Shown piece after piece: positions 4,640-60,015 of a DNA stretch of 64,000 nt (positions within the stretch are counted from its first letter, which is position 1; each line of letters opens with the position of its first letter). A model generated the notes under the pieces. It saw nothing but the letters and a program-made list of their open reading frames with translations, was not told the origin of the DNA and did no database searches. Made by a program: the position numbers and the translations under genes. The DNA is from Amphiscolops sp. MND2022 (Eukaryota): positions 52,826,001 through 52,890,000 of the forward strand of contig OZ076409.1 of assembly GCA_964187785.1 (NCBI GenBank), written 5' to 3'.

Positions 4640-6175
4640 TCTCAAACATCGGAGTTCCAAACAGACTGACAGCTTGTTTCTCCAACGATACTTGATCTAG
4701 AGCTGTTGCAACCAAGAACTGACTCCTAACTCGATCAGGCATCTGCAATTGCTGGAGAGCACCTCGATGGCAGGGCCTGAAACAAAACATAAATCTACAT
4801 AGTTGTAAGGGCCCAAAAGAAACCGAAAAGTCCTAAAATCCGATGGTGACTCACACGTCTCATGCAACCCATTACGATACACATCCCGGTAACGAACTAG
4901 CAGGATCCTGCTAGTTCGATTTTTGTCCAATCAGAGCGGGAATAATTTTCTTGGAAGTTTTCCACTTGTCATACATTACACGCATTGATAGGACGTTACA
5001 CTAGTTGACACAGCTTCGAATGTGCTAATGGCATTGAAAAATTGGGAACTATAGTCAACTTAAAAAGTGCTTCCAACTCGAGGAAACATGACAGTTCAGA
5101 AACTTCAGACTATGGATTTTTTTACGAAACCGACACCAGAGAAAAAACGTAAATATAATACCCAAAAACGCATTAGACTCGAGCTTCGAAGTTTCGGACA
5201 CACTGACAGCTTGCTCCTCCATCAACGACACTTGAGCTAGAGCTGTTGCAACCAAGGACTGACTCCGATCTCGATCAGGCATATACAATTACAGCAGAGC
5301 ACCACGTTGACAGGGTGTGAAATAAAAACAATTCTCGTTAATTGTCAGAGCCCAAAAGAAACCGAAAAAGTCCTAAAATCCGATGGTGACTCACGCGTCT
5401 CATGCAACCTAGAATGTGCTAATGGGATTGAAAAATTGGGAACTATAGTCAACTTGAAAGTGTTAGAGAACTCGAGGAAACATGACAGTTCAGAAACTTC
5501 AGACTATGGATTTTTTTACGAAACCGAAACCAGAGAAACGTAAATATAAAAACAACAAGACGGGAACGTCTAAAGTCGGCGCTATATCTAAGGCTAAAAA
5601 AGCGCAAAAAAAATTTTTGAATATTTTTTATTTCAGAAAATGTCGCATAGTGCCGAAAAATGTAAAAGGGATACCCTTTGGGCTTTATCAACATATATTC
5701 TGTTGCAAAATATCAAAAAACTTGAAAGGGGGACTCTTTTGATACATTAAAAAATTTTTGAAAAAAGTCGCACAATGCCGAAAAAAAATTGAAAGGGGGG
5801 ACCCTTTAGTCTCGTCCGGTTTTGAAGGCTACGGTAAAATAGTAAAATATGAAAGGGGGGACCCTTTTGCACTGATTTCCGCTGACCGGACTTGGCCTTA
5901 TGCTAGTAGTTTTAGTAGTTTCGATTGTAAGAAAAGTGGCCCAATCAGCGTGAGATTGTAGTCTGACGAAAAAAAAACTAGCCACTGTAAGTGTCGGGCA
6001 CTTTTCACTAGAAAAGCGCCGACAAAAACGCATGAGACTCGAGCTTCGAAGTTTCAGATTGACTGACAGCTCGTTCCTCCACCAACGAGACTTGAGCTAG
6101 AGCTGTTGCAACCAAGGACTGACTGTCAACTCGATCAGGCATCTACATTAGCAGGAGAGCGTCATGTTGATGGGT
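4640..6175 (-). pseudogene. Locally duplicated decayed fragments of an LRR-like (F-box/LRR-type) gene
   Basis: Three related segments (~4640-4870, ~5165-5410, ~6030-6175). Minus-strand translation includes LCFVSGPAIEVLSSNCRCLIELGVS, resembling cysteine-containing LRRs. Stops and frameshifts are present. Confidence 0.4.
5554..6028 (-). mobile_element. Helentron-like non-autonomous element, family A
   Basis: Near reverse complement of 44884-45385. The paralogous empty site at ~5150-5175 shows insertion into an A/T run with no clear TSD. Confidence 0.8.
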
Positions 6176-6219
6176 TGTTGTTCCCAAGAAACCAGGTTTC
6201 TCAGAACAATCAAAACAAG

Positions 6220-6819
6220 TCAAACAACAGATTTTATTACTCTTTGAAAGAGACGGACAGCATGGGGTATGTCAACTTCATGGTTTAAGTGAACACCATC
6301 AGGTTCAAAATGTAAAATGACCATAAGGATTAATGTACTTGGGGCTGACACAAGATTAATTGGATCAAGCTAAAACATTAGTTTCTTGTGCAATGAATCT
6401 CGCGACATCAGGCCTGGACATTGGACCAAATATTCTATCAGCACGAGGATAACGCCATCGGACTTCAGTTTTGAAGTTTGCCAGACTGAGAGCTACCTCC
6501 TCTGGACTTTTAGCAATAGCGTCGGTTTCTAAGGATGAGGAGTCAAGTCATTGTTTCCGCACCAAACAATGACTGCATCGTATTTTGCAGCCATTTCAGA
6601 GAAGTCGAGCGAAAATTGCGCTCGCAATCCGCTTCTAGGGCACCAAAGAACCAAACCAGTCGGCAGTCAAATAACAAGTAGAGAGAGAACAATTAATGAA
6701 CTGGAACAAACACTTACTCTAGGCGCAAATAGTCCGCAAGATGACTATCTTATGCGAATTTCGGTACACATTTTTTCAGCTTAGAGTCACCCAATCTTAA
6801 CACAGAGCAACTTCCCCAT
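6220..6819 (-). pseudogene. SGNH/GDSL hydrolase pseudogene (first of 12 tandem copies; last copy 18506-19103)
   Basis: Minus strand, across frameshifts: MGKLL..LGDS(N)L (GDS 6791-6783); GTAAGT donor 6717-6712; LVWFFGALE; YDAVIVWCGNNDL (GNNDL 6558-6544); SPEEVALSLANFKTEVRWRYPRA..GPM.RPD; HFEPDGVHLNHE (DGVH 6300-6289); RLFQRVIKSVV*. SGNH blocks I, II, III and V occur in the correct order. Confidence 0.8.
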
Positions 6820-9800
6820 CGAAACTGTTTGCTTGCTTATGTGAAAGGGAGGCAATGCGTATCCGTTACACTCAAATTATTTTGATTACGCAGAACTCAC
6901 GCAGAATTTGCGCTAACCAACAGCTTTTGCGGCACCAATAACGGCACTGTTAAAAAACCTGTCAGCTGTAAAAAAACTTATTAGGAACAAACACGTAACC
7001 TAGGAGCAAGTAGTCAACAGGATGACTATCATTTACGGAATGCTGTACACATCTTTTCAAGTTAGAGTCGCTCAATATTTACACTCTGGAAGCAACTTTA
7101 CCATCGAAACTGATTGCTTGCTTATGTAAAAAGGTAGCAATGAGTATCCGTTACCTCCAAATTATTTTGCAACCAAGGACTGACTCTCAACTCGATCAGG
7201 TATCTTCATTAGCAGGAGAGCGTCAAGTTGATGGGTTGTTGTTCTCAAGAAACCAGGTTCTTTCAGAACAATCAAAACAACAGTCAAACGACAGATTTTA
7301 TTACTCTTTGAAAGAGACGGGCAGCATTGGGTATGCCAACTTCATGGTTTAAGTGAACACCATCAGGTTCAAAATGTAAAATGACCATAAGGCTTAATGT
7401 ACTTGGGGCTGACACAAGATTAATTGGATCAAGCTAAAACATTAGTTTCTTGTGCAATGAATCTCGCGACATCAGGCCTGGACATTGGACCAAATATTCT
7501 ATCAGCACGAGGATAACGCCATCAGACTTCAGTTTTGAAGTTTGCCAGACTGAGAGCTACCTCTTCTGGACTTTTAGCCATAGCGACGGTTTCTAAGGAT
7601 GAGGAGTCAAGTCATTGTTTCCGCACCGAACAATGACTGCATCGTATTTTGCAGCCATTTCATAGAAGTCGAGCGAAAATTGCGCTCGCAATCCGCTTCT
7701 AGGGCACCAAAGAACCAAACCAGTTGGCAGTCAAATAACAAGTAGAGAGAGAACAATTAATGAACAGGAACAAACACTTACTCTAGGCGCAAATAGTCCG
7801 CAAGATGATTATCTTTTGCGAATTTCGGTATACATTTTTTTTCAGGTTGGAGTTACCCAATCTTAACACTGAGAGCAACTTTCCCATCGAAACTGTTTGC
7901 TTGCTTATGTGAAAGGGAAGCAATGCGTATCCGTTACTCTCAAATTATTTTGATTACGCAGAATTTGCGCTAACCAACAGCTTTTGCGGCACCAATGAAC
8001 GGCACTGTTAAAAAACCAGTCAGCTGTAAAAAAAAACATATCAGGAACAAACACGTAACCTAGGAGCAAGTAGTCAGCAGGATGACTATCATTTACGGAA
8101 TGCTGTACACATCTTTTCAAGTTAGAGTCGCTCAATATTTACACTCTGGAAGCAACTTTACCATCGAAACTGATTGCTTGCTTATGTAAAAAGGAAGCAA
8201 TGAGTATCCGTTACCTCCGAATTATTTTGCAACCAAGGACTGACTCTCAACTCGATCAGGTATCTTCATTAGCAGGAGAGCGTCAAGTTGATGGGTTGTT
8301 GTTCTCAAGAAACCAGGTTCTTTCAGAACAATCAAAACAACAGTCAAACGACAGATTTTATTACTCTTTGAAAGAGACGGGCAGCATTGAGTATGCCAAC
8401 TTCATGGTTTAAGTGAACACCATCAGGTTAAAAATGTAAAATGACCATAAGGCTTAATGTACTTGGGGCTGACACAAGATTAATTGGATCAAGCGAAAAC
8501 ATTAGTTTCTTGTACAATTAATCTGGCGACATCAGGCCTGGGCATTGGACCAAATATTCTATCAGCACGAGGATAACGCCATCGGACTTCAGTTTTGAAG
8601 TTTGCCAGACTGAGAGCTACCTCCTCTGGACTTTTAGCAATAGCGTCGGTTTCTAAGGATGAGGAGTCAAGTCATTGTTTCCGCACCAATGACTGCATCG
8701 TATTTTGCAGCCATTTCAGAGAAGTCGAGCGAAAATTGCGCTCGCAATCCGCTTCTAGGGCACCAAAGCAGTAGGCAGTCAAATAACAAGTAGAGAGAGA
8801 ACAATTAATGAACAGGAACAAACACTTACTCTAGGCGCAAATAGTCTGCAAGATGACTATCTTTTGCGAATTTCGGTAAACATTTTTTCAGGTTAGAGTC
8901 ACCCAATCTCAACACTGACTGAGAGCAATTTTCCCATCGAAACTGTTTGCTTGCTTATGTAAAAGGTAAGCAATGAGTATCCGTTACTCTCAAATTGTTT
9001 TGATTACGCAGAACTCACGCAGAATTTGCGCTAACCAACAGCTTTTGCGGCACCAGTAAAAGGCACTGTTAAAAAACCAGTCAGATGTAAAAAAAACTTA
9101 TTAGGAACAAACACGTAACCTAGGAGCAAGTAGTCAGCAGGATGACTATCATTTACGGAATGCTGTACACATCTTTTCAAGTTAGAGTCGCTCAATATTT
9201 ACACTCTGGAAGCAACTTTGACATCGAAACTGATTGCTTGCTTATGTAAAAAGGTAGCAATGAGTATCCGTTACCTCCAAATTATTTTGCAACCAAGGAC
9301 TGACTCTCAACTCGATCAGGTATCTTCATTAGCAGGAGAGCGTCAAGTTGATGGGTTGTTGTTCCCAAGAAACCAGGTTCTTTTAGAACAATCAAAACAA
9401 CAGTCAAACGACAGATTTTATTACTCTTTGAAAGAGACGGGCAGCATGGGGTATGCCAACTTCATGGTTTAAGTGAACACCAGCAGGTTAAAAATGTAAA
9501 ATGACCATATGGCTTAATGTACTTGGGGCTGACACAAGATTAATTGGATCAAGCGAAAACCTTAGTTTCTTGTACAATGAATCTCGCGACATCAGGCCTG
9601 GGCATTGGACCAAATATTCTATCAGCACGAGGATAACGCCATCGGACTTCAGTTTTGAAGTTTGCCAGACTGAGAGCTACCTCTTCTGGACTTTTAGCCA
9701 TAGCGACGGTTTCTAAGGATGAGGAGTCAAGTCATTGTTTCCGCACCGAACAATGACTGCATCGTATTTTGCAGCCATTTCATAGAAGTCGAGCGAAAAT

Positions 9801-12800
9801 TGCGCTCGCAATCCGCTTCTAGGGCACCAAAGAACCAAACCAGTTGGCAGTCAAATAACAAGTAGAGAGAGAACAATTAATGAACTGGAACAAACACTTA
9901 CTCTAGGCGCAAATAGTCCGCAAGATGACTATCTTTTGCGAATTTCGGTAAACATTTTTTCAGGTTAGAGCCACCCAATCTCAACACTGACTGAGAGCAA
10001 CTTTCCCATCGAAACTGTTTGCTTGCTTATGTGATAGGTAAGCAATGAGTATCCGTTACTCTCAAATTGTTTTGATTACGCAGAACTCACGCAGAATTTG
10101 CGCTAACCAACAGCTTTTGCGGCACCAGTAAACGGCACTGTTAAAAAACCAGTCAGCTGTAAAAAAAAACTTATTAGGAACAAACACGTAACCTAGGAGC
10201 AAGTAGTCAACAGGATGACTATCATTTACGGAATGCTGTACACATCTTTTCAAGTTAGAGTCGCTCAATATTTACACTCTGGAAGCAACTTTGACATCGA
10301 AACTGATTGCTTGCTTATGTAAAAAGGAAGCAATGAGTATCCGTTACCTCCAAATTATTTTGCAACCAAGGACTGACTCTCAACTCGATCAGGTATCTTC
10401 ATTAGCAGGAGAGCGTCAAGTTGATGGGTTGTTGTTCCCAAGAAACCAGGTTCTTTTAGAACAATCAAAACAACAGTCAAACGACAGATTTTATTACTCT
10501 TTGAAAGAGACGGGCAGCATGGGGTATGCCAACTTCATGGTTTAAGTGAACACCATCAGGTTAAAAATGTAAAATGACCATATGGCTTAATGTACTTGGG
10601 GCTGACACAAGATTAATTGGATCAAGCGAAAACCTTAGTTTCTTGTACAATGAATCTCGCGACATCAGGCCTGGGCATTGGACCAAATATTCTATCAGCA
10701 CGAGGATAACGCCATTGATGTTTGCCAGACTGAGATCTACCTCCTCTGGACTTTTAGCAATAGCGACGGTTTCTAAGGATGAGGAGTCAAGTCATTGTTT
10801 CCGCACCAAACAATGACTGTATCGTATTTTGCAGCCATTTCAGAGAAGTCGAGCGAAAATTGCGCTCGCAATCTGCTTCCAGGGCACCAAAGAACCAAAC
10901 CAGTCGGCAGTCAAATAACAAGTAGAGAGAGAACAATTAATGAACAGGAACAAACACTTACTCTAGGCGCAAATAGTCCGCAAGATGACTATCTTTTGCG
11001 AATTTCGGTAAACATTTTTTCAGGTTAGTCACCCAATCTCATTACTGAGAGCAACTTTCCCATCGAAACTGTTTGCTTGTTTATGTGAAAGGGAAGCAAT
11101 GCGTATCCGTTACTCTCAAATTATTTTGATTACGCAGAATTTGCGCTAACCAACAGCTTTTGCGGCACCAATGAACGGTACTGTTAAAAAACCAGTCAGC
11201 TGCTGAAAAAGCCTATTTGGAACAAACACGTAACCTAGGAGCAAGTACTCAGCAGGATGACTATCATTTACGGAATGCTGTACACATCTTTTCAAGTTAG
11301 AGTCGCCAATATTTACACTCTGGAAGTGACTTTACCATCGAAACTGATTGCTTGCTTATGTAAAAAGCAAGCAATGAGTATCCGTTACCTCCTAATTATA
11401 TTGCAACCAAGGACTGACTCTCAACTCGATCAGGTATCTTCATTAGCAGGAGAGCGTCAAGTTGATGGTATGTTGTTCCCAAGAAACCAGGTTTTTCAGA
11501 ACAATCAAAACAACAGTCAAACAACAGATTTTATTACTCTTTGAAAGAGACGGGCAGCATGGGGTATGCCAACTTCATGGTTTAAGTGAACACCATCAGG
11601 TTCAAAATGTAAAATGACCATAGGCTCAATGGACTTGGGGCTGACACAAGATAAATGGGATCAAGCGAAAACATTAGTTTCTTGTACAATTAATCTCGCG
11701 ACATCAGGCCTGGGCATCGGACCAAATATTTTATCAGCACGAAGATAACACCATCGGACTTCAGTTTTGAAGTTTGTCAGACTGAGAGCTACCTCCTCTG
11801 GACTTTTTGCAAAAGCGACAGTTTATAAGGATGAGGAGTCAAGTCATTGTTTCCGCATCAAACAATGACTGCATCGTATTTTGCAGCCATTTCAGAGAAG
11901 TCAAGCGAAAATTGCCCTCGCAATCCTCTTCTAGGGCACCAAAGAACCAAACCAGTCGGCAGTCAAATATACAAGTTGAGAGAGAACAATTTTTGAACAG
12001 AAACAAACACTTACTGTAAGCGCAAATAGTCCGCAAGATGACTATCTTTTGCGAATTTCGGTAAACATTTTTTCAGGTTAGTCACCCAATCTCATTACTG
12101 AGAGCAACTTTCCCATCGAAACTGTTTGCTTGCTTATGTGATAGGTAAGCAATGAGTATCCGTTACTCTCAAATTGTTTTGATTACGCAGAACTCACGCA
12201 GAATTTGCGCTAACCAACAGCTTTTGCGGCACCAGTAAACGGCACTGTTAAAAAACCAGTCAGATGTAAAAAAAACTTATTAGGAACAAACACGTAACCT
12301 AGGAGCAAGTAGTCAGCAGGATGACTATCATTTACGGAATGCTGTACACATCTTTTCAAGTTAGAGTCGCTCAATATTTACACTCTGGAAGCAACTTTGA
12401 CATCGAAACTGATTGCTTGCTTATGTAAAAAGGTAGCAATGAGTATCCGTTACCTCCAAATTATTTTGCAACCAAGGACTGACTCTCAACTCGATCAGGT
12501 ATCTTCATTAGCAGGAGAGCGTCAAGTTGATGGGTTGTTGTTCCCAAGAAACCAGGTTCTTTTAGAACAATCAAAACAACAGTCAAACGACAGATTTTAT
12601 TACTCTTTGAAAGAGACGGGCAGCATGGGGTATGCCAACTTCATGGTTTAAGTGAACACCATCAGGTTAAAAATGTAAAATGACCATATGGCTTAATGTA
12701 CTTGGGGCTGACACAAGATTAATTGGATCAAGCGAAAACCTTAGTTTCTTGTACAATGAATCTCGCGACATCAGGCCTGGGCATTGGACCAAATATTCTA

Positions 12801-15462
12801 TCAGCACGAGGATAACGCCATCGGACTTCAGTTTTGAAGTTTGCCAGACTGAGAGCTACCTCTTCTGGACTTTTAGCCATAGCGACGGTTTCTAAGGATG
12901 AGGAGTCAAGTCATTGTTTCCGCACCGAACAATGACTGCATCGTATTTTGCAGCCATTTCAGAAGTCGAGCGAAAATTGCGCTCGCAATGCGCTTCTAGG
13001 GCACCAAAGAACCAAACCAGTCGGCAGTCAAATAACAAGTAGAGAGAGAACAATTAATGAACTGGAACAAACACTTACTCTAGGCGCAAATAGTCCGCAA
13101 GATGACTATCTTATGCGAATTTCGGTACACATTTTTTCAGCTTAGAGTCACCCAATCTTAACACAGAGCAACTTCCCCATCGAAACTGTTTGCTTGCTTA
13201 TGTGAAAGGGAGGCAATGCGTATCCGTTACACTCAAATTATTTTGATTACGCAGAACTCACGCAGAATTTGCGCTAACCAACAGCTTTTGCGGCACCAAT
13301 AACGGCACTGTTAAAAAACCTGTCAGCTGTAAAAAAACTTATTAGGAACAAACACGTAACCTAGGAGCAAGTAGTCAACAGGATGACTATCATTTACGGA
13401 ATGCTGTACACATCTTTTCAAGTTAGAGTCGCTCAATATTTACACTCTGGAAGCAACTTTACCATCGAAACTGATTGCTTGCTTATGTAAAAAGGTAGCA
13501 ATGAGTATCCGTTACCTCCAAATTATTTTGCAACCAAGGACTGACTCTCAACTCGATCAGGTATCTTCATTAGCAGGAGAGCGTCAAGTTGATGGGTTGT
13601 TGTTCTCGAGAAACCAGGTTCTTTCAGAACAATCAAAACAACAGTCAAACGACAGATTTTATTACTCTTTGAAAGAGACGGGCAGCATTGGGTATGCCAA
13701 CTTCATGGTTTAAGTGAACACCATCAGGTTCAAAATGTAAAATGACCATAAGGCTTAATGTACTTGGGGCTGACACAAGATTAATTGGATCAAGCTAAAA
13801 CATTAGTTTCTTGTGCAATGAATCTCGCGACATCAGGCCTGGACATTGGACCAAATATTCTATCAGCACGAGGATAACGCCATCGGACTTCAGTTTTGAA
13901 GTTTGCCAGACTGAGAGCTACCTCTTCTGGACTTTTAGCCATAGCGACGGTTTCTAAGGATGAGGAGTCAAGTCATTGTTTCCGCACCGAACAATGACTG
14001 CATCGTATTTTGCAGCCATTTCATAGAAGTCGAGCGAAAATTGCGCTCGCAATCCGCTTCTAGGGCACCAAAGAACCAAACCAGTTGGCAGTGAAATAAC
14101 AAGTAGAGAGAGAACAATTAATGAACAGGAACAAACACTTACTCTAGGCGCAAGTAGTCCGCAAGATGATTATCTTTTGCGAATTTCGGTATACATTTTT
14201 TTTTCAGGTTGGAGTTACCCAATCTTAACACTGAGAGCAACTTTCCCATCGAAACTGTTTGCTTGCTTATGTGAAAGGGAAGCAATGCGTATCCGTTACT
14301 CTCAAATTATTTTGATTACGCAGAATTTGCGCTAACCAACAGCTTTTGCGGCACCAATGAACGGCACTGTTAAAAAACCAGTCAGCTGTAAAAAAAACAT
14401 ATCAGGAACAAACACGTAACCTAGGAGCAAGTAGTCAGCAGGATGACTATCATTTACGGAATGCTGTACACATCTTTTCAAGTTAGAGTCGCTCAATATT
14501 TACACTCTGGAAGCAACTTTACCATCGAAACTGATTGCTTGCTTATGTAAAAAGGATGTGTATCCGTTACCTCCAAATTATTTTGCAACCAAGGACTGAC
14601 TCTCAACTCGATCAGGTATCTTCATTAGCAGGAGAGCGTCAAGTTGATGGGTTGTTGTTCTCAAGAAACCAGGTTCTTTCAGAACAATCAAAACAACAGT
14701 CAAACGACAGATTTTATTACTCTTTGAAAGAGACGGGCAGCATTGAGTATGCCAACTTCATGGTTTAAGTGAACACCATCAGGTTAAAAATGTAAAATGA
14801 CCATAAGGCTTAATGTACTTGGGGCTGACACAAGATTGATTGGATCAAGCGAAAACATTAGTTTCTTGTACAATTAATTTGGCGACATCAGGCCTGGGCA
14901 TTGGACCAAATATTCTATCAGCACGAGGATAACGCCATCGGACTTCAGTTTTGAAGTTTGCCAGCCTGAGAGCTACCTCCTCTGGACTTTTAGCAATAGC
15001 GTCGGTTTCTAAGGATGAGGAGTCAAGTCATTGTTTCCGCACCAATGACTGCATCGTATTTTGCAGCCATTTCAGAGAAGTCGAGCGAAAATTGCGCTCG
15101 CAATCCGCTTCTAGGGCACCAAAGCAGTAGGCAGTCAAATAACAAGTAGAGAGAGAACAATTAATGAACAGGAACAAACACTTACTCTAGGCGCAAATAG
15201 TCTGCAAGATGACTATCTTTTGCGAATTTCGGTAAACATTTTTTCAGGTTAGAGTCACCCAATCTCAACACTGACTGAGAGCAACTTTCCCATCGAAACT
15301 GTTTGCTTGCTTATGTAAAAGGTAAGCAATGAGTATCCGTTACTTTCAAATTGTTTTGATTACGCAGAACTCACGCAGAATTTGCGCTAACCAACAGCTT
15401 TTGCGGCACCAGTAAACGGCACTGTTAAAAAACCAGTCAAATGTAAAAAAAACTTATTAGGA

Positions 15463-15725
15463 ACAAACACGTAACCTAGGAGCAAGTAGTCAGCAGGATG
15501 ACTATCATTTACGGAATGCTGTACACATCTTTTCAAGTTAGAGTCGCTCAATATTTACACTGTAAATATTGAGCGACTCTAACTTGAAAAGATGTGTACA
15601 GCATTCCGTAAATGATAGTCATCCTGCTGACTACTTGCTCCTAGGTTACGTGTTTGTCATCAGTTTCGATGTCAAAGTTGCTTCCAGAGTGGCACTCTGG
15701 AAGCAACTTTGACATCGAAACTGAT
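15463..15725. repeat. Two adjacent perfect palindromes (fold-back duplications) within one array unit
   Basis: 97-bp arms at 15463-15559 and 15561-15657; 33-bp arms at 15659-15691 and 15693-15725. Each has a 1-nt centre. Confidence 0.95.
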
Positions 15726-15872
15726 TGCTTGCTTATGTAAAAAGGTAGCAATGAGTATCCGTTACCTCCAAATTATTTTGCAACCAAGGACTGACTCTCA
15801 ACTCGATCAGGTATCTTCATTAGCAGGAGACCGTCAAGTTGATGGGTTGTTGTTCCCAAGAAACCAGGTTCT

Positions 15873-16353
15873 TTTTAATATTTCTGCTTTAGCAGGAATG
15901 TTATTGTAACCTCAAAGTTGGTCCTTTTTTTTTTCAGTCGTCAAATTTCGTCCTACTGAATAATTCAGATATTTTGTTCGGCAGTGAGTGTAAGCGTGGG
16001 AAAGCTGCCGACAACAATTCAATTCTAGTGCGATAGAACGAGCGAGTGGTAATTATCAATTCGTATGCTGACGTCATTGAGATGAAGCGAATGAGTGTTA
16101 ATTATTCGTTCGTTGAGAGCTTCGCCTGCATTCAAATGCGAATGCGAAACTTCGTCTACGCTTAGTTATATTTTCTTTAGTCCGAGAAGAATTAAAGGCG
16201 GTGTAAACTTGTACAGTGATTAATTGTGCTCTAAGTAATGATTAAACAGGAGTGTATTGGTATTCCAGATATGATTCTTTTATTAATGATTTTTTGTTTT
16301 AAAAAAATAAAGATTAAAGCAGAAATAGTACTGAGCCCCGGAGGGGCCTATTT
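15873..16353 (+). mobile_element. DINE-1/Helentron-like non-autonomous element, family B, inserted in the array
   Basis: Subterminal inverted repeats atttctgcttta / taaagcagaaat and 3' hairpin gccccggaggggc. Inserted in the T run of ggttcttttagaac without a TSD; the other units show the empty site. Confidence 0.85.
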
Positions 16354-19300
16354 TAGAACAATCAAAACAACAGTCAAACGACAGATTTTATTACTCTTTG
16401 AAAGAGACGGGCAGCATGGGGTATGCCAACTTCATGGTTTAAGTGAACACCATCAGGTTAAAAATGTAAAATGACCATATGGCCTAATGTACTTGGGGCT
16501 GACACAAGATTAATTGGATCAAGCGAAAACCTTAGTTTCTTGTACAATGAATCTCGCGACATCAGGCCTGGGCATTGGACCAAATATTCTATCAGCACGA
16601 GGATAACGCCATCGGACTTCAGTTTTGAAGTTTGCCAGACTGAGAGCTACCTCTTCTGGACTTTTAGCCATAGCGACGGTTTCTAAGGATGAGGAGTCAA
16701 GTCATTGTTTCCGCACCGAACAATGACTGCATCGTATTTTGCAGCCATTTCATAGAAGTCGAGCGAAAATTGCGCTCGCAATCCGCTTCTAGGGCACCAA
16801 AGAACCAAACCAGTTGGCAGTCAAATAACAAGTAGAGAGAGAACAATTAATGAACTGGAACAAACACTTACTCTAGGCGCAAATAGTCCGCAAGATGACT
16901 ATCTTTTGCGAATTTCGGTAAACATTTTTTCAGGTTAGAGTCACCCAATCTCAACACTGACTGAGAGCAACTTTCCCATCGAAACTGTTTGCTTGCTTAT
17001 GTGATAGGTAAGCAATGAGTATCCGTTACTCTCAAATTGTTTTGATTACGCAGAACTCACGCAGAATTTGCGCTAACCAACAGCTTTTGCGGCACCAGTA
17101 AACGGCACTGTTAAAAAACCAGTCAGATGTAAAAAAAACTTATTAGGAACAAACACGTAACCTAGGAGCAAGTAGTCAACAGGATGACTATCATTTACGG
17201 AATGCTGTACACATCTTTTCAAGTTAGAGTCGCTCAATATTTACGCTCTGGAAGCAACTTTGACATCGAAACTGATTGCTGGCTTATGTAAAAAGGAAGC
17301 AATGAGTATCCGTTACCTCCAAATTATTTCGCAACCAAGGACTGACTCTCAACTCGATCAGGTATCTTCATTAGCAGGAGAGCGTCAAGTTGATGGGTTG
17401 TTGTTCCCAAGAAACCAGGTTCTTTCAGAACAATCAAAACAACAGTCAAATGACAGATTTTATTACTCTTTGAAAGAGACGGGCAGCATGGGGTATGCCA
17501 ATTTCATGGTTTAAGTGAACACCATCAGGTTCAAAATGTAAAATGACCATAGGCTCAATGGACTTGGGGCTGACACAAGATAAATGAGATCAAGCGAAAA
17601 CATTAGTTTCTTGTACAATTAATTTGGCGACATCAGGCCTGGGCATTGGACCAAATATTCTATCAGCACGAGGATAACGCCATCGGACTTCAGTTTTGAA
17701 GTTTGCCAGACTGAGAGCTACCTCCTCTGGACTTTTAGCAATAGCGTCGGTTTCTAAGGATGAGGAGTCAAGTCATTGTTTCCGCACCAATGACTGCATC
17801 GTATTTTGCAGCCATTTCAGAGAAGTCGAGCGAAAATTGCGCTCGCAATCCGCTTCTAGGGCACCAAAGCAGTAGGCAGTCAAATAACAAGTAGAGAGAG
17901 AACAATTAATGAACAGGAACAAACACTTACTCTAGGCGCAAATAGTCCGCAAGATGACTATCTTTTGCGAATTTCGGTAAACATTTTTTCAGATTAGAGT
18001 CACCCAATCTCAACACTGACTGAGAGCAACTTTCCCATCGAAACTGTTTGCTTGCTTATGTGATAGGTAAGCAATGAGTATCCGTTACTCTCAAATTGTT
18101 TTGATTACGCAGAACTCACGCAGAATTTGCGCTAACCAACAGCTTTTGCGGCACCAGTAAACGGCATTGTTAAAAAACCAGTCAGATGTAAAAAAAAACT
18201 TATTAGGAACAAACACGTAACCTAGGAGCAAGTAGTCAACAGGATGACTATCATTTACGGAATGCTGTACACATCTTTTCAAGTTAGAGTCGCTCAATAT
18301 TTACACTCTGGAAGCAACTTTGACATCGAAACTGATTGCTTGCTTATGTAAAAAGGAAGCAATGAGTATCCGTTACCTCCAAATTATTTCGCAACCAAGG
18401 ACTGACTCTCAACTCGATCAGGTATCTTCATTAGCAGGAGAGCGTCAAGTTGATGGGTTGTTGTTCCCAAGAAACCAGGTTCTTTCAGAACAATCAAAAC
18501 AACAGTCAAATGACAGATTTTATTACTCTTTGAAAGAGACGGGCAGCATGGGGTATGCCAATTTCATGGTTTAAGTGAACACCATCAGGTTCAAAATGTA
18601 AAATGACCATAGGCTCAATGGACTTGGGGCTGACACAAGATAAATGAGATCAAGCGAAAACATTAGTTTCTTGTACAATGAATCTCGCGACATCAGGCCT
18701 GGGCATCGGACCAAATATTTTATCAGCACGAAGATAACACCATCGGACTTCAGTTTTGAAGTTTGTCAGACTGAGAGTTACCTCCTCTGGACTTTTTGCA
18801 AAAGCGACAGTTTATAAGGATGAGGAGTCAAGTCATTGTTTCCGCATCAAACAATGACTGCATCGTATTTTGCAGCCATTTCAGAGAAGTCAAGCGAAAA
18901 TTGCCCTCGCAATCTTCTAGGGCACCAAAGAACCAAACCAGTCGGCAGTCAAATATACAAGTTGAGAGAGAACAATTTTTGAACAGAAACAAACTTTTAC
19001 TGTAAGCGCAAATAGTCCGCAAGATGACTCTCTTTTGCGAATTTCGGTAAACATTTTTCAGGTTAGAGTCACCCAATCCTAACACTGAGAGCAACTTTCC
19101 CATCGAAACTGTTTGCTTGCTTATTTGAAAAGGAAGCAATGTGTATCTGTTACTTTCGAATTTTTTTGATTACGAAATTTTTTTGCTCCGATATCGCATA
19201 AATGCAGGAACATTTCTGTGTCACAAAGTTACTAAGGGACAGTAACCGTTTATTTTTCTGTGGAAAGTGTCGACGAGTTGAAATCTTTAACAGTTAAAAC

Positions 19301-19944
19301 AAATGTTCAAAATTTTTCCCAAACAGCCAGTGCTGTGTTTATAACCATAGTAGTCTCACGAGATGCGTCAGAGACCTAATGTAAGACAGAGTTCGCAGAC
19401 ATTCCCGAGACCTAATGTGAGTTACATCATATTCATAGATGGAGGAACAGTTAACTTGTTTAGTTCTCGAGCTCCCTCATCTAACTGCGATTTCGCGAGT
19501 AGCTCGTAAATCTAAGCGTTGAAGGAGCTTCAGAAGATACTAAACCGAAAACCGCCACTCAACCTCGCAGTCTTCAGCTTTTTGTGAACAGCGTTCCAAA
19601 AGTCTAACATACGGCTGAACAGAATGGGGAGAGTCACTGAGTGGAAACCAAGGAGATGGAATGCAAAACTTTTACCACCGAGACAGCTGGCAGGTTTCAA
19701 TGGCCCGGATTTTTTTAATCGAAAGTGCATTATATTCGGTTCAAAATGAGTTAGTTTTTAACAATTCAAATTGTTTTTTTCAAAAAACTTGGCAAACACA
19801 GCCAGTGCTGTGTTATTGACCATCGTAATCTCTCGGGATGCATTAATGCATTAGAGACCTAATGTAACAGTTACCTATTGGTGTGGATTTAGGAACAATT
19901 TATTTAATCAGTTCTCGAGCTCCCTCATCTGAGATCAAAAGAAA

Positions 19945-20135
19945 AGTCGAAGACCAGAAATTATTGCTTTTTGAAATAGACGGGTAGTATGGCAGATATC
20001 AAACTCACTCTTCAAGTGAGTACCATCAGGCTCAAAATGGCATGAGGAATAATGCCCCTCATGCTGAAGTTTGTTCATTTCATGGAACCAAGCAAAAACA
20101 AATTAGTTTCTTGTACAATGAATCTCGAGTGGTCA
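19945..20135 (-). pseudogene. Diverged SGNH hydrolase C-terminal fragment
   Basis: Minus strand reads HFEPDGTHLKSEFDICHTTRLFQKAII. It shares ttagtttcttgtacaatgaatctcg with the array unit. Confidence 0.65.
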
Positions 20136-20299
20136 TCAAATCTTGCACAGGCAGCAATGAGTAGTGTTCATCGAATTGGGAGATCTCATAGTGGAAAATT
20201 GCCGAAGAAATGACACACTGGTGACCGAGAACGGTCATATTTAACAATCGCCGTGGTCTCATTTTTGTCCCATGGTCTCATTTTTGTCTTCCTGGTGAT

Positions 20300-23200
20300 A
20301 CACAGCTACAACAGCAAATCTGCCTGTTTTGGTTTGCGCAATACATTCGCTCCAATTTTTAGATTAGGATAACGATAATGTCTAGTGTAGGATAACGATG
20401 CTATATTTCGAAAACTTTGTAAAGAATGTCGACTGCGAAGGTGTCCCGGGCCACATTCCAAGAAAGCAAACCTCCAACAATCAGCAGATACATCTGTGAA
20501 ACGGTTGTCAAGCTTCTGCAGACTGTCTTTGCGCTCAATCTCAATCTTTTGGCGCAAAAGAGAGTTATCCGAAAGACGAGATTAAACTCTTCATGGTTCC
20601 TTGAACAGAGCTGAACAAGAAATGATTCGCTGACTCGAAAGCAGACGCTGAATTTCTCCACAAAGGCCCTTTACGACGGATTTGATCGCAGAGATGCCTA
20701 AGACGGTGAATGTTGAACTCAGCTACTCTTTGCCGTAGAGTTTCACAAAACACCCCTGAAATTCTATCTGACGCTCAGCCTCATTGATGGTATCTCCAGT
20801 GACCTTCTTCATACATAACAGCTGCATGGCAACATGACCAGCATCCAACATTTGCAACGATTTCAAATTCTTGGAATTGTCAATCAATGCAGCCACTGCC
20901 GCATTGTAAGATATAACTAACGTACCAGCACTGGTGTCTGAAATACAGGATCCACCTACCATCCCTAAAAACTGGATTCCTTGTTTAAAATCATATACAA
21001 TGAACGATTTTAAGAAGTTAGTCTCGACTTCCTCTTGAAACGTTAAACTTCTGTCAAGATACACACCGAGATATTCAATGGAATTGGTTGCTTTAATGGA
21101 TTGGCCTTCAAGTTTCAAATTTTCCATCACTCGATTTTTGCGAGGTTTACTGAAGACAATGAATTCGGTTTTACTAGCATTTATTATGAGTAGGTGACTT
21201 TCAAAATAGCGTTCTAGAGAAATAATATTTTTCTCCAGGGCTTTCAACGAGACTTATACATCTTTGTTAGATATGAAAATCATGGTATCATCTGCATATT
21301 GCAGAAGGTTGCCCGAATTGTCAATTGTTTTATATTATCAACATAGATTTTGAATAGAGAAGGCCCTAAAATAGTCCCTTGTGGAACACCTTGATAAAGC
21401 TGAATCCTTCCGATGAAGTCTTTTGAGTTTTTTTAAAATCCAACTCAAATCGTTTTCATTTTCCCTTGATGATCATTATGACCCACGTATCCAGGTTTGT
21501 TTCTTCTATTAAAACAAGGAACATTTATGACAAAGATTTATTCGAACATCACTGATTACAAACTAACTCGCTGGGACAATCGAGAAGAAGGTCTGCCTTG
21601 AAAACTTTCCGAACCTAAACATAATATCATTCAGATACAGGAGGACTTTATCTGCAAACAAGAGCTTAAAGTGACATTTCAAGTGCCACATAATCAGGCG
21701 TCACAATAACTTCATTCGACAGCCAGTGCTGACATGAATTTTATGGAAACCTTGACCAGCATTTAACTTTTGCAACCAATTCGTTGGAATTGTCGATTGA
21801 CGAAACCAGTGCCGCATTGTAGACATAACTTTCCAGCAGTGTTGCCTAAAAGAATGGATCCATTTGAAATCCTTTTTTTATAGATGCTTTCAATTCTATA
21901 AATGTCACCTTTTTGAAACCCAATACGAAATCCTTTCATTTTTGTCTGGTCGAATATTGGAACACATCCACAGATTCGTCGTTTCTTCCATTAAAGCGAG
22001 AAGCATGTAAAAAAACGAGTGAACATCTCTATTTCAAATTATTTTTATTACTAACAATCGACGAAAAGTCTGACGTTTTTGCGCCATCGCGGTTCGCGTT
22101 TTTCGTGAGCGCAACGGGACTGCTCTATTTTGCTCTCAAGACATGCATCATGCAGCGCAGCAATAGCTCCATTGTATTGCTCCCAACAGTTCAAAGAAAA
22201 CTTTTGAGTAATAATTTTGGCCCGAGCACTTTTGTCCGCAAAACCTACCATTTTTCAGAGCATTGCAGAATTCGATGGCACTTCAAGAGCAGGAGTATCC
22301 ACAGTCGAATCTAACTAGACAGTTCCGTTTTTGATGCGGTTGTGTCCAGACGTCATACTCATTGTCGGATGCGTTTACATCCTAATTTTGATGAATTATT
22401 GGGCTTGTATAGCACTCACGTTCGATGCGTTCTGTATTATTCAAACTGGCACCCGAAAGATTTGTTCTCAACTTCAGCATGACTGCCAAGGAACCAGACT
22501 TTCTTTCCCTTCAAAGTCACCGTTCTTACAACGGATCATCAATTTATCAGACTTTGCAAGTCCTAGCCGCTCCGCCAGGTCTAGTGCCAAAAAGCTTTAG
22601 GACTTGATCGAGAGCAACGAAAGTGTTGTCTTGGGGAAAGCGAATAATGACGGCGCTGTCATGATTCCTAAACTCTTGAAAACCTCGATTCGGACGATTG
22701 GAGCTGAAAATGAAACTTCATTGCTTATTGTGCGTAAAGGACGAAACGTTCAGAGTAAATTACAATTAAAAACAATTATGTTGAAAAGCCCCAGAAAATA
22801 TAGTCAGTGCTTTGTCCCGTAATTGAAAGAAAGGGGTGAAGAAATGAATGAATGAAAAGCTGAAGTCTGTTACAATTATAATTGATTAATGTAAAACAGT
22901 TAGTCTAAAGACAGCCAGTGCTGTGTTGAAAACAACTCCCCTTGCGAGCGAGATCTAAGAGTTTTTGATTTACTCAAATTTCTCATCAAATTGTCAGAAC
23001 ACTTGCAGAAAACTTTTAGCAACGAAAGATCCTCGGAAACACCAAACTGAATGCGGCCGGCCGGGTTCCGGCACTCAAGAAGTACTATTACATCACTCAC
23101 GGCTGCAGCTGAGATTAACAACCGGAAGGTGTCACATGGCAAGCACAGATAATAAACTAACCCAACGAAATATCAGACTTTGTAAGTCTTAGCTGCTCCA

Positions 23201-23550
23201 ACTGTCTAGTTCCAAAGTTCTCGGTAGCTTGTAGTCGCGAGCAACGAAAGGCTTGTCTTGGAAAAATCGAATGATTTTGTGGTCAATATCCTTAAACTAT
23301 CAAACATCGACTCGGTCGATTGGAGCTGAATGTTAAACTGAATTGTTTATTCTTTGTTAAGGATGAACCGTTCAGAATACATTAGAATTAAAAACAAATC
23401 ATGTTGAAGAGGCCGATAAAACAGCCAGTGCTGGGTCCAGTATTTGATAAAATGAGAGTGAAGGAATGAATGAATAGAAACTAGTCTCTTATACTTGAAT
23501 TTATTTAACGTAAAAGAATTCGTCCAAACACAGCCAGTGCTCTGTTGAAT
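20300..23550 (-). pseudogene. Cluster of decayed paralogous gene fragments (LRR-like)
   Basis: 20870-20955 is homologous to 21785-21862, and 22540-22940 to 23170-23550. Translations include YNAAVAALIDNSKNLKSLQMLDAG and LEQLRLTKSDIS. There are many stops, and the family call is weak. Confidence 0.35.
21025..21415 (-). mobile_element. Non-LTR retrotransposon (LINE) reverse transcriptase fragment
   Basis: GVPQGTILGP, QYADDTMIF, LIINASKTEFIVF and YLGVYLDRSLTF motifs, with frameshifts. Confidence 0.9.
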
Positions 23551-24852
23551 GAGGCGCCCCTAGTGAGCACTTGATTTACTCAATTCTGGAAGAAGCTCAG
23601 AGGTATCAGAGCGACATCGTAGCTGCCGATGGGAATATTAGAAGATGTCGGAAAGCTAATTGCAAGTACCGAATAACGAGCGCAGAGCAATCGAGCGAAG
23701 AACGAGCAAACACTTGCAGAGAAAAATGCCAACTTTGAAGAGAAAACCTAACAAGCAATATTATACGGAGAACCACGGGTCAAGGAGTTGGACAATTTCT
23801 CTACTAATTGATCAGTTTAACCCGGAATGGCGTATGAATTTTCGGGATTCATCCAAAATTCTTATCTTAAACTTTAAACAATATCTTAAAGTGTTCAAGT
23901 TCGACAAACTACTTTTGGCCGCACTGGCTCCGGAATTTGCGCCAAAACTTTGTACGCATCGTGTCACTGACTGCATTGCAGCATGTTTCAAAACATGCTA
24001 GGGTCTCTTTGAACCAATCTTGTCTGCAGTGAGATAAAGTGGCCACAAAAGAAAACAGGAAGAACGGAAATTTTGGTCTCAATTTTGATTTTTTGCTCCC
24101 GTTTTTTTTATTTTGGAGACACCAAGTTAACAATCCGTGAAAATGCATGCAATGCGATTTAATATTGTCTGAAATTCTTATTCAAGACGTTTCTTTACCA
24201 TACCAGCTGGTGCCTTTGAAAGTTTGCAGACCTTCAGTGGTGCAAATACGTACCACGATGCTAATTAGGGTTAAACAATGCTGGGAACGGTCCAAGACGG
24301 CGTCCCGCTAAAAGTTCGAAAGAGGGAAGTTTTCTAAATAGGCAAGCGTCACTTTTGTCAAATGTTTATAAAATTGAGAGCTCCGGAAAGTACCAAAAGT
24401 GTTTCGCATAAGACTGGAACACCGCTTTTCTATAACTTGAAGCATAAAAAACTGATTTTTTGAAGTTTTTTCTTCGTGCAAAAGTCCTATAGTGACAAAA
24501 AAGAAGCTTTACGCTCACCAGACGCTTTTCAGGCCGAAAAGATCAATCGGAGAGAAGGGGGTACCCTTCGACCAAATGAAAACCGTATTGAAAATAAAAT
24601 TGCAGTGTCAAAAAAAACTGGGTCTTATCCACAATAATTGAGAAAACTCATCAGTTCCACAAAATGAAAAAACTCAAAAGTCTCATTGTGGGCTTTTTAA
24701 TCATCCAGTTGGGTGCAAAACAACAAAAAACAAAGAAGGGGCCCTTTGGCCCATTCCATATGCTTCCACCAATCGTATAATGAAACGTAATTGAAATTGA
24801 ATGGGAACAAGACGCCCGCTAAGCACTGGGATTTTTTCCGCTTAAAATGTAA

Positions 24853-24924: not shown

Positions 24925-26154
24925 AATTTCAGTTACTTGACTATTATAGTTACTAGTAATATATTTACTGGTAAAGTGGTCAAGTAACTAAGTTGAGTGG
25001 AGATAAAGTGGAGTTTTGGCAGAACTTGGAAACGCAACACAGATCATGATTTTCCTCCCCCATTTATGTGGGCGGAAAATAATAAATATAATAAAATAAT
25101 ATATTTTTACATTCGAATGAAAATTTTTGACCTGTTAAAATGAAAAAAATAACCTTTAGATAACTCGCCTAAATTGAGTTTACTTCAACGCGTCGACAGC
25201 CAAATAAATCCGAGAAATCTTAACCCATTGAACTTCGGGTCGAAAATTTTTTCAAAGACTAACAAAAAATATTGGTCTGTTCGTGATGTGATGTTCAGAG
25301 CATACTTTAAGTTTTTGTTGATATTTGTTTCTCGCTAACAATAAAAGTAATTATTGTAGCACAAAATAATGAAATTATTTATTTTTTCCACCCTGAAAAT
25401 AAAATGATTCATTTTTAGCAATAATAAGATTCGAATAAAACACTGAACACCCATGGATACAAGTTTTTAATTTGATTTAAACTTGTAAAAGTTTGAGCAT
25501 AAATGTATTTTCTATATAATGTGTAAAAATTGTCAGCAAATAGTGGGTTTCGGAGAAAGAAGAAATAGGTAAAATCAGTGAACGCATAAAAATGCTCTTT
25601 CGGGTTGGTAGATTGATGCCATGTTGGAAACGGTTTGATGAAGAATTGAAAATCAACAGAACTCTGAAAATATTCGAATTGGGTAAAACGTGATTCAGCC
25701 ATACACGAAAAGGTGCAAATAATTTCAACCAATCAGAACCGTTCAGTAAACGTTTTTGATATAAACAAAATAGGCCTCAGTATTATTCCTGCTATGTCTG
25801 TTAGTTTGAAACGTAACGTCATACAGGTTACTCCCCCACACACCCTCACGCACACACTCACATCCATGCCCCGTCTTCGTGCACAGAATTCAACAATACT
25901 CTACCAGTATTCATAAATAACTTAACATGACATGTGAGTGTGGTGTGTATGTGTGGAGTGGGGGAAAGAAAGTTATGACTTCTGCTATAAAATGATTCCT
26001 AACTTTCCAGATCTAAATTCAGGGAACAGGAATAGCAAAACACTTTTCAGACGTTATTTCTCAGACATTATTCAGATTCTAAATTCAGAAAATTTTAGAA
26101 ATTATTAAATGTCAAAACTTATTATTATGATCTTAAATCTAAGGATGGAATATT

Positions 26155-26432
26155 ATCTAAAATTTAGGGACCGGAATACGATCTAAAGGAAATAAGGTCT
26201 AAAACTTAAGGGCCGGAATAAGATCTAAAGGGAATAAGATCTAAAACTTGAGGACCGGAATAAGATCTAAAGGGATTAAGATCTAAAACTTTAGGACCGG
26301 GATAAGATCTAAAGAGAATAAGATCTAGAACATAAGAACCGGAATAAGATCTGAAGGGAATACGATCCAAAACTGAAATATGATCTAAAGAGAATAAGAT
26401 CTAAAACTTAAGACCGGAATAAGATCTAAAGG
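26155..26432. repeat. Minisatellite, ~42 bp unit built from ggaataagatctaaa sub-repeats
   Basis: Repeated ggaccggaataagatctaaagggaataagatctaaaactt variants, about six units. Confidence 0.9.
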
Positions 26433-42880: not shown

Positions 42881-43348
42881 TTAGGAGTCGGAAAAAATTT
42901 TCGACTACTTATGCAATCGTGTTGTTTTTTTTTTCTCCCGACCTTTTCATGAAAATTTCAAATTTCTCAAAAACTGTCTATACGATTTTCATGAAATTTT
43001 GCACAGTCATTCTACACCCAAAGGGGCCCCTGCGTGTGCAAAGGCATCAAAATCGTATGGCTGGGATGTGAGAAACATAGCCAAAATTAGCCCAAAAATG
43101 GCCAAAAAACAGCCATTTTTCGACTTTTTTCGATTTTCTCAAAAACTGTCCATACGATTCGAACGAAATTTTCTACAGTTATTCTACACCATATTAGAGT
43201 CCTATATGTGCAATGGCATCAAAATCGTATGGCTGGGATGTGAGAAACATAGCCAAAATTAGCCCAAAAATGGTCAAAAAAGGGCCATTTTTCGACTTCA
43301 GAAAAAAAGACCTAAGCCGACTCCTTTACCGCACATGCGGCTCTGGTT
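42881..43348 (+). mobile_element. Helentron-like element family C
   Basis: Nearly identical to 31584-32385 but with fewer internal repeats. Confidence 0.85.
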
Positions 43349-43682: not shown

Positions 43683-53850
<10,168 letters not shown>

Positions 53851-55029
53851 TGAAACGATTAATAGAAGCTGCACATAACTCAAGCATATATTGAAAACAA
53901 ATTGATCTAACGCTGGCGTTAATGATACTGTAATCTTTTCTATTTGTTATTTACGGTTGATCTTCATTCATCTGATCATGCTGCTAAATTTATCCAAAAA
54001 AGATGAGAAACTACTTTCAACGTTGGTCCAATGATTATGGTAATCGTCTCGCTGTAATTTTGTTGAATTGTAGAGAAAGATCTGATCTCTTGTTGTCTAT
54101 TAGATTTTGGAATCTAATGAAATGTGATGACCACTTGATAAGATTGATATTACCTTTTGAAAAGATGTACATTGACTGCCTTTAACTATAACCAAATATG
54201 TAAAAAACCTCTATACAGTTATATTTTTATGCAAACCGTAAAATTCGAAATGTGTGATGAGAAATTGAGCTAAACCGTTCTCTTATCTTGTACGCATCAA
54301 GAAAATCACATCTATGATTTCTATCAAGTTTCTAGTACAGTGCCCTCAAAGTCGAACCACTCGAAGGCCTTGCTTCCTCAGTAAATTGGTTACTGCACAT
54401 TTTGTCAAAATAATGTAACTTATTCAACAAATGATATTCAGAACAAAGCTAAAAAGTTAAAAAACACTACAATATGTACTCGGCTGGCGTCACCCACTGA
54501 GAAATTGAGAAAATATGAAAGTTGGTGACATGGAACTTGAGCGTTTCTGTAAACTTATACCAGCTCTTTACACGGGTCTTTCACGGTGTGAGGTGAAATG
54601 AATATCGAGTGAAATGATTGTGAACCGTCTTTCCCTGATTGAAATTAGGTCTGTTGTAGCGAGATTGTATTGAGTTCAAACTAGCGCATTTTTATATTTC
54701 TGCGTAAGAATGATTAAAACGTTAAGTGGTTGTTACTTCTCATTTGTTCTCTTAACGTCATGTCTAACTTCCAGAAGCAAGGGAGGCTTTTATTTACATG
54801 AAGCGAACGAGTATTTTTTTTCTCCATTACGAATTGATATCAATAGCACCGAGGCCAAAATGTCCATGTTGCCAAATCAAACTAAACTAAGGGTTGGTGT
54901 GCGTGGCTAGAAACCAAGAGTACATTGGCTTGAAACCCGCAATGAATTAAAAAGTTTTCCGAAAGAATTAGATTATCGCCCATTCTATTTTTTTCAACGG
55001 CAGACGAAAATTCCTAGTTAGCAAATCGT

Positions 55030-59685: not shown

Positions 59686-60015
59686 AAACGCCACGCCTTA
59701 CAAATACAAGCGAAGAACCACCGAAACCACAAGACGACTGGCAGCGTCAAGTCGCTTCTATAAGTATACAACTCAAACAACTGACGACTGAACCCGACTC
59801 ACCTCCAACTACACCACAAACAACCGAACAACACATCCCCCAGGAGTCCCTCTACGAACTCCTGAGCAATGCACCAGACAATTGCTTCACAAACCCACAT
59901 GAACCACATCACCCAAGTACGGACGTAACTCCAAAAATTCACCACCACACCATCACAAATACCTGTGAAGCAACAAATTCTTCTTGCAATGAACCCAAAC
60001 AACCCCTTTTAGACG

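Follow-up and report, generated by a model that had tools for sequence, protein, structure and literature searches.

We analyzed a stretch of 64,000 nucleotides (the window) and found that it carries a tandem array that is very probably non-coding and derived from a gene. Twelve head-to-tail units with a period of ~1.06 kb lie on the minus strand, in agreement with a preliminary description that had reported a 13-kb array of such units (Table 1). That description had also proposed a gene-derived array, and we could indeed trace the units to an SGNH hydrolase gene. It has the look of common duplication debris and belongs to a known class, the tandem arrays derived from a gene. Judged from its sequence, it would produce no enzyme and in all likelihood has no function.

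Table 1. Positions of the array, its modules, and neighboring features in the window
Feature	Positions	Strand	Description
Tandem array	6106..19174	-	12 A-modules and 11 B-modules; minus-strand order A, truncated Y, B, repeated
Module A, unit 1	6220..6819	-	Disrupted SGNH hydrolase gene from the ATG at 6819 to its stop; 76% identical to P0001 over 145 codons
GTAAGT donor-like site	6712..6717	-	After the block-I segment in 11/12 A modules; carries an in-frame TAA
Module B	6890..7166	-	5' part of an older paralogue, ~75–80% identical to A; ends shortly after block II
Module Y	6008..6142	-	Open frame of 44 codons (MPDRV...), just past the 3' end of the gene
Local inverted duplication in a B module	15463..15725	.	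Perfect 97-bp arms (15463–15559/15561–15657) and perfect 33-bp arms (15659–15691/15693–15725)
Insertion, HINE/DINE-1-like	15872..16354	+	483 bp; 16-nt subterminal inverted repeats, GC hairpin at one end, T-rich target
SGNH-family paralogue relic	19950..20134	-	C-terminal 60 codons; 54–56% identity to P0001/P0002
Older decayed duplicated modules with CAGCACTGGCTG	19300..23560	-	6 matches versus 0.13 expected

Pairwise identities between the units range from 92.6% to 99.6%. Units 1–4 match units 7–10, indicating a later duplication of a 6-unit block, and the twin pairs u2/u8, u3/u9, and u4/u10 are 99.4–99.6% identical (versus a median of 96.3%). Units u7 and u11 are mosaics. The run of units is not clean: the inverted duplication and the 483-bp insertion interrupt it at 15463–16354. 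Nevertheless, a long head-to-tail array with higher-order structure, as in macrosatellites, is present. An assembly artefact was rejected as the main cause because the differences between copies (0.4–7%) are structured and copies have insertions of their own. The DNA around the array is rich in repeats and animal-like in character.

The second, diverged N-terminal module reported earlier corresponds to module B. Its donor position is altered, and a CTGAC-T6-AACAG acceptor-like site (G at 6947) is found in nine of the ten B modules examined. Internal units keep only the first part of module Y, of which two further diverged copies start at 5282 and ~4742. The LRR-like piece (LIELRVSPWLQ) of the preliminary description did not hold up: its LIEL frame hits a stop in all three flanking copies, and the other frame of the same DNA (MPDRV...) is open in all three. 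Paralogue relics occur on both flanks of the array, and a LINE RT fragment at ~21060–21400 interrupts the decayed CAGCACTGGCTG modules. Pfam gave no match for any of 11 flank pieces or 7 broken pieces from the window.

The array copies are 72–76% identical to P0001, an uninterrupted 155-aa ORF. All 16 PDB sequence matches of the family profile are either named as SGNH/GDSL-type or PAF-AH proteins or were designed on that scaffold. The predicted model of P0001 (pLDDT 91.5) has PAF-AH as its top Foldseek matches, and that of P0027, a full-length relative (pLDDT 93), matches 1yzf (VIA Z 19.2, rmsd 2.1, 163 aligned); both models adopt the SGNH alpha/beta fold. PAF-AH Ib and bacterial GDSL-2 esterases (PDB 1bwp, 1yzf) are the best structural matches among those listed, at an identity of 17–21% that denotes the same superfamily but not the same family. 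The kinship with P0001, the PDB matches, and the predicted folds together confirm the proposal of an SGNH-hydrolase-derived unit. A profile or structure match had been suggested as its check; the predicted structure provided one, but Pfam alone was weak, with Lipase_GDSL_2 below the curated cut-off (E=0.032 for P0001). In Oskar, the SGNH fold of the OSK domain is joined to a LOTUS domain and has lost the catalytic residues. The relatives found here keep the catalytic motifs, and OSK ranked only 39th in the structure search with P0027 (Z 13.5 versus 19.2 for the best match).

At E up to 0.001 we found 35 relatives with the catalytic residues kept, several of them as many near-identical copies. 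Three intact-looking paralogues (P0001–3) lie on contigs that are all 198,808 bp long, which fits a natural cluster. A weak search for longer fused relatives found none among 8000 candidates. The viral fold library gave no match with E≤0.001 (the best one reached 20% identity) and thus no sign of a viral parent. The window contains a Gypsy pol; this pol, P0001, A3, P0027, P0041, P0023, and a flank ORF had no matches in viral contigs. Neither P0001 nor the 21-nt unit pattern had matches in JGI metagenomes, and neither A1 nor P0027 had any in GTDB genomes.

The catalytic motifs described earlier are present, but three-frame translations of the 12 copies showed that they form a composite over copies and not a single-copy protein. 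By these translations, block I GDSN occurs in 5/12 copies, block III YDAVIVWCGNNDL exactly in 1/12, and block V FEPDGVHLN in 6/12; the ATG reported for each unit shares its reading frame with the block-I segment in three of the 12 copies only. FFGA, which had been taken for block II, is an off-frame reading: block II is CPRSGLR, and the frame aligned to the intact relative reads VLWCPRSGLRAQF, with RSG. Likewise, FIGAA of module B is off-frame and the aligned frame reads TADWFFNSAVHWC. The GDS serine of block I is found in 5/12 A modules and in nine full-length relatives, and the window's block-I segment aligns weakly to profile positions 7–29 (E 0.02). In alignment A3, G43, D46, D130, and H133 are invariant and N44/N45 nearly so; the block II Gly, block III GxND, and block V DxxH are all found there.

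None of the 12 array copies has an uninterrupted reading frame. Relative to P0001, all 12 share four lesions: the reading frame shifts near residue 57, a gap of codon length follows near 83, a stop and a gap lie at 105–113, and sequence is inserted at 123–128. Over 78 lesion-free codons, the copies differ by 19 non-synonymous and 4 synonymous variants (pN/pS 1.33; p=0.80 against neutrality, a test with little power because it rests on these 23 variants only). The shared lesions and the neutral-looking variation support the view, already put forward in the preliminary description, that the gene was dead before amplification. P0001 runs uninterrupted across these shared breaks, and we therefore rejected the idea that they reflect programmed frameshifting or tiny introns.

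The parent was probably a spliced esterase gene of an SGNH family without a name, with a sister clade that resembles mobile-element cargo. The preliminary description had argued from the apparent intron to a cellular or captured gene and away from a LINE ORF1. The first part of this argument is weak. Five of ten sister-clade clusters are multicopy, as mobile cargo would be, so the presence of an intron does not favor a cellular origin, and spliced genes are also described from mobile elements, namely the ORF3 esterases of LTR retrotransposons and the texim genes borne by Helitrons (PMC5408684, PMC4021074). A LINE ORF1 origin found no support: the window contains no esterase-then-ORF2 order and no open frame upstream of the esterase, and no ORF2 was found downstream of the esterase at the locus, where Y modules and repeats lie and the RT fragment is upstream.

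We see an even chance that the parent was accessory cargo of a mobile element (an LTR ORF3-like esterase, an Ngaro-type hydrolase, or a Helitron-borne texim-like gene), the array being amplified transposon debris. The five multicopy sister-clade clusters have 4, 5, 8, 12, and 14 members with 90–99% identity, and the contigs that carry them almost all differ in length, although some members might be alleles that stem from several assemblies; by contrast, each of 12 near-clade clusters examined has only 1–2 members. The N-terminal extensions of P0041 and P0050/58 resemble, from the protein letters only, the translated end of an intron immediately ahead of the GDSN segment. They look as they would in an acceptor-led ORF. 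Rotifer LTR elements are also described as carrying spliced ORF3 GDSL esterases (PMC5408684). However, flank-versus-flank blastn revealed no LTR, TIR, or split direct repeat bracketing the cluster, and no recombinase, helicase, or pol relic was recognized beside the gene among the window ORFs and flank pieces of this decayed locus. No Helitron gene was seen among the window ORFs. Mobile cargo would describe the parent and is compatible with a gene-derived, dead array.

Alternatively, and more tentatively, the parent may have belonged to a cellular, lineage-specific esterase family that forms tandem clusters and is not mobile, the array being a pseudogenised cluster member. The local clustering of paralogue relics, the co-occurrence of P0001–3, the probable intron, and the separation of the near clade at 100/100 support are all consistent with such a family. 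The near-identical, multicopy sister clusters are not, and many near-clade members are truncated or frameshifted; moreover, none of the 22 clusters of relatives examined has a named or annotated member.

An intron between blocks I and II of the parent gene is likely from the spacing and the splice-like motifs. The array has ~20 extra codons between these blocks compared with full-length relatives, nine of which have a fixed spacing of 28–29 residues. The GTAAGT donor is present in module A, as stated earlier, and the matching acceptor, described earlier as looking decayed, is absent from 12/12 A modules; an acceptor is retained in module B only. It is rather unlikely that the extra codons are instead a coding insertion and GTAAGT a nonsense change that resembles a donor by chance. 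In favor of a coding insertion, some B modules have an open frame that runs from block I through VHWC (ORF 7905–8138), P0001 and P0004, which are 52% identical overall, share WFFSS, and residues 14–21 of P0004 align with the helix end of the full-length relatives. Against this, the spacing in full-length relatives is fixed, GTAAGT occurs outside the array at 0.18 per kb per strand, and the CTGAC-T-tract-CAG pattern, defined after it was seen, does not occur in 50.9 kb outside the array. A phase-2 GTAAGT donor also forces an in-frame stop, which would explain why P0001–3 are called from the Met just after it. GDS is found in 0/14 near-clade proteins, but 8/12 far-clade rows also lack it through start choice.

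We propose that the dead array arose from an old cluster of SGNH-hydrolase paralogues and neighboring small modules that decayed in place, leaving the relics on both flanks. The amplified 1.06-kb segment would comprise broken gene A, the start of downstream Y, and the 5' stump of the second paralogue B. From the structure, amplification may have occurred by unequal exchange between homologous paralogues, with a first expansion to about six units before the observed duplication of the six-unit block; the mosaic units reflect crossover or conversion. A template-switch inversion and the HINE-like insertion would have come last because both are absent at the twin position. The features of the insertion are as in PMC4067079, and other copies lie at 55029–55497 and 30314–31088.

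The inverted duplication forms hairpins from the gene's 5' sequence that are far more stable than a same-length stretch of another copy (-234.5 versus -67.0 kcal/mol). These 97- and 33-bp hairpins could be a source of small RNAs, and the array might then be a selected silencing locus in which hairpin or both-strand transcription represses intact family members. We consider this improbable: the hairpins, although perfect, occur once, are younger than the amplification, and are an ordinary product of template switching; B-module sequence is only ~80% identical even to A; and none of six sub-threshold Rfam matches, five of them on the hairpins, reaches the gathering score. A mobile-borne SGNH esterase family, not yet described, in which a single clade acquired an intron and came to lie in tandem clusters while the hairpins of the dead array silence still-spreading relatives through small RNAs, would be a very long shot.

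The array resembles tandem arrays that contain or derive from genes, such as the D4Z4/DUX4 macrosatellite, and satellite HORs in its kilobase unit taken from a gene, its block duplication, and its mosaic units; HOR formation and unequal crossing-over are treated in PMC5615363. It differs in that 12 copies over 13 kb are seen and every copy was broken before amplification; the 64-kb window gave no evidence of a macrosatellite-type function or genome-wide abundance. The Helitron-associated texim/teximY genes of fish, as described in PMC4021074, are likewise multicopy, clustered SGNH genes of an animal genome with truncated pseudogene copies, and they are spliced, as the array's parent probably was. 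By that description, texim has 15 exons, lies in expressed copies 80–280 kb apart, and adjoins a Helitron coding region, whereas the array consists of head-to-tail dead copies of a compact gene with no Helitron gene seen. The GDSL ORF3 of bdelloid Vesta LTR retrotransposons (PMC5408684, which describes expression of such ORF3s from spliced messages) and the Ngaro SGNH ORF (10.1101/2021.08.05.455354) are reported as multicopy, stand-alone SGNH ORFs of ~180 aa; around the array gene, neither a pol or recombinase nor LTRs or split direct repeats were recognized in the decayed locus, and the gene has a probable internal intron. The CR1/L2/RTEX ORF1p esterase (ZfL2-1), as presented in PMC3905857, shares the SGNH fold and catalytic motifs, but neither an upstream coiled-coil ORF nor a downstream ORF2 was seen at the array, its sole RT fragment being upstream of the gene. 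The 50 structural matches listed for P0027 included no LINE esterase, which excludes nothing.

The array is a clean worked example of a pseudogene-born tandem array in which decay, amplification, block duplication, inversion, and insertion are legible. The protein family offers a more useful lead, with its 35 catalytically conserved and partly multicopy relatives. If their flanks share an element, it would be a new esterase-carrying mobile element and would bear on why unrelated transposons repeatedly capture SGNH esterases.

By eye, the block-I segments of A and B showed no excess of synonymous change. In the same A versus B alignments, the sequence upstream of the ATG seems better preserved than the coding segment, which could reflect recent conversion or constraint.

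Self-comparison of the window revealed the tandem array reported in the preliminary description: nine units up to 15561, then a rearranged stretch, then three further units. Each unit, read on the minus strand, contains the broken gene (module A) followed by the 5' portion of module Y, which lies downstream of it. Module B completes the unit; it is a 5' stump ~75–80% identical to module A and corresponds to the second, diverged N-terminal module seen previously.

Pfam matched none of seven pieces of the broken gene. A search with the longest natural frame, which spans 108 codons with a single stop read as X, retrieved two proteins with 70% and 57% identity; in a full HMMER scan, 35 relatives lay at or below E = 0.001. 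One relative, P0001, is a 155-aa ORF without interruption; the longest listed contig is 198,808 bp for each of P0001–P0003. No named member was present in the 22 clusters of relatives examined (20 ENA, 2 Logan). Pfam support for the family was weak (Lipase_GDSL_2 in 10/21 members, best E 0.0035), yet the family profile matched SGNH-type PDB chains only, the P0001 model (pLDDT 91.5) matched PAF-AH plus other SGNH enzymes, and the model of the full-length relative P0027 (pLDDT 93) matched 1yzf (Z 19.2, rmsd 2.1, 163 residues). Atlas look-ups concurred. Because profile matches and models alike point to SGNH, the array gene is of SGNH origin, as first proposed. P0001 and P0002 are identical over their first 49 residues and far more diverged thereafter (77% overall), a pattern that suggests gene conversion between intact paralogues.

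The SGNH motifs ascribed to every unit proved to be a composite over copies: GDSN occurs in 5/12, YDAVIVWCGNNDL (block III) in 1/12 and FEPDGVHLN in 6/12. FFGA, quoted as block II, and FIGAA lie in frames neighbouring those aligned to P0001; the aligned block II frame reads VLWCPRSGLRAQF. With frames corrected, the observation is largely real. The LRR-like piece did not survive: its frame runs into a stop in each of the three flanking copies, and an overlapping 44-codon frame (MPDRV...) is open in all of them.

We then aligned each copy to P0001 in a frameshift-aware manner (72–76% identity). Four lesions, near residues 57, 83, 105–113 and 123–128 of P0001, are common to all 12 copies; an 11-nt loss at residues 8–11 is found in nine, and the other three have a further gap there. 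Among 78 codons outside the lesions, with codons next to a lesion dropped, variants at codon positions 1/2/3 numbered 7/8/8, with 19 non-synonymous and 4 synonymous changes (pN/pS 1.33, p=0.80), showing in this small sample no coding constraint among copies. The gene was dead before amplification, as had been suspected.

The 12 A-Y segments are 92.6–99.6% identical (median 96.3%). Because unit pairs 2/8, 3/9 and 4/10 are 99.4–99.6% identical and 6/12 cluster together, a block of six units must have been duplicated. The affinity of units 7 and 11 shifts from one part of the unit to another, as expected from crossover or conversion. The block duplication preceded the 483-bp insertion. This insertion carries inverted repeats in subterminal position and a hairpin at one end, and its target is T-rich; excerpts of PMC4067079 list these features for HINE elements. 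The hairpins formed by the arms of the inverted duplication reach −234.5 kcal/mol versus −67.0 for a control stretch; they are the sole array feature that could supply small-RNA pathways, as candidates only.

Is the gene spliced? The block-I Gly and block-II Gly are 28–29 residues apart in nine full-length relatives, and the window gene has ~20 codons more. GTAAGT lies at this extra segment in 11/12 module A copies (background outside the array, 0.18 per kb per strand); an acceptor was found in 0/12. In module B the donor position is altered, and CTGAC-T6-AACAG is present in 9/10 modules examined (the 11th, rearranged, was left out), 52–54 nt downstream and phase compatible where T-run length permits. 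This acceptor pattern, defined post hoc, is absent from 50.9 kb outside the array. A phase-2 GTAAGT makes an in-frame TAA, and this would account for the calling of P0001–P0003 from the Met that directly follows. Against an intron, some B modules are open throughout the block I–II segment, and WFFSS, common to P0001 and P0004, aligns to a helix end of the relatives. The reported donor-like GTAAGT stands, and the putative intron between blocks I and II is rather probable. The N-termini of P0041 and P0050/58 suggest, at the protein level, another acceptor 8–11 codons before GDS, at the aacag noted earlier; the ATG may therefore not be the true start.

The intron had been taken to suggest a cellular or captured gene. 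This does not follow, because spliced SGNH ORFs also ride mobile elements: excerpts of the respective papers describe SGNH ORFs in LINE ORF1p (PMC3905857), LTR ORF3 SGNH ORFs expressed from spliced messages (PMC5408684), SGNH ORFs in Ngaro elements (10.1101/2021.08.05.455354) and texim SGNH genes linked to Helitrons (PMC4021074). In a tree of 26 relatives (short fragments left out), a near clade of 14 rows split from its sister clade, the far group, with 100/100 support. Each of the 12 near clusters consulted comprises 1–2 members, many of them truncated; 5/10 far clusters have 4–14 members, 90–99% identical and on differently sized contigs. The far pattern suits mobile cargo, although alleles from several assemblies could contribute to the pattern, and the family may be mobile. 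Within the window, we found no element marks around the gene (the sole nearby RT fragment is upstream) and no terminal repeat common to both array flanks. A non-exhaustive literature search returned nothing on this family or any SGNH-derived array.

The flanks show an older, decayed paralogue cluster, with an SGNH relic and three diverged Y modules in the MPDRV... frame. Y modules have no family match; an AG or pyrimidine run directly precedes each ATG. In diverged duplicated modules upstream, CAGCACTGGCTG recurs on a single strand, with six occurrences against an expectation of 0.13; it reads NTALAVF in one frame, within a short palindrome, and VATALAQV of Y modules resembles NTALAV of these modules. 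Pieces such as DEGARELIK and LKSLQMLD, which we take to be leucine-rich-repeat-like, had no Pfam match. A weak tblastx match to sequence just behind the SGNH stop hints at one further decayed paralogue.

Taken together, the array is a gene-derived tandem array of known kind whose source was a pseudogene in an unnamed SGNH family, and it is most likely without function. A broken segment of the old cluster would have been amplified by unequal exchange and then block-duplicated, inversion and insertion striking last. The window as a whole (GC 32–43%, rich in repeats) looks eukaryotic and animal-like.

Features of the array and its surroundings
Feature	Position	Strand	Remarks
Tandem array	6106-19174	minus	period 1.06 kb, 12 copies
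Inverted duplication			two pairs of perfect arms, 97 bp and 33 bp; separates unit 9 from unit 10, absent between twins 3 and 4
483-bp insertion	15872-16354		between units 9 and 10, absent between twins 3 and 4
HINE/DINE-1-like non-autonomous element	15872-16354, 55029-55497, 30314-31088		three copies, 78-81% identical
Y modules	4641-6178	minus	
MPDRV... frame	6008-6142		
SGNH paralogue relic	19950-20134		
CAGCACTGGCTG modules	19324-23542	minus	
Weak tblastx match	21466-21516	minus	E 0.04
LINE RT fragment	21060-21400	minus	RVT_1 E 0.095
LINE RT fragment	35637-36023	minus	RVT_1 E 1e-15
Gypsy-type LTR retrotransposon	58591-64000	plus	with frameshifts; gag, zinc knuckle, protease, RT/RNase H, integrase; runs past window end, any ORF3 would fall outside
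172-bp tandem repeat	31660-32335, 42956-43298		within dispersed element
42-bp tandem repeat	26129-26432		x7; subunits 16 and 25 bp
Dispersed 500-bp element	5548-6028, 36972-37473, 44885-45391		75-90% identical; one copy between two Y modules
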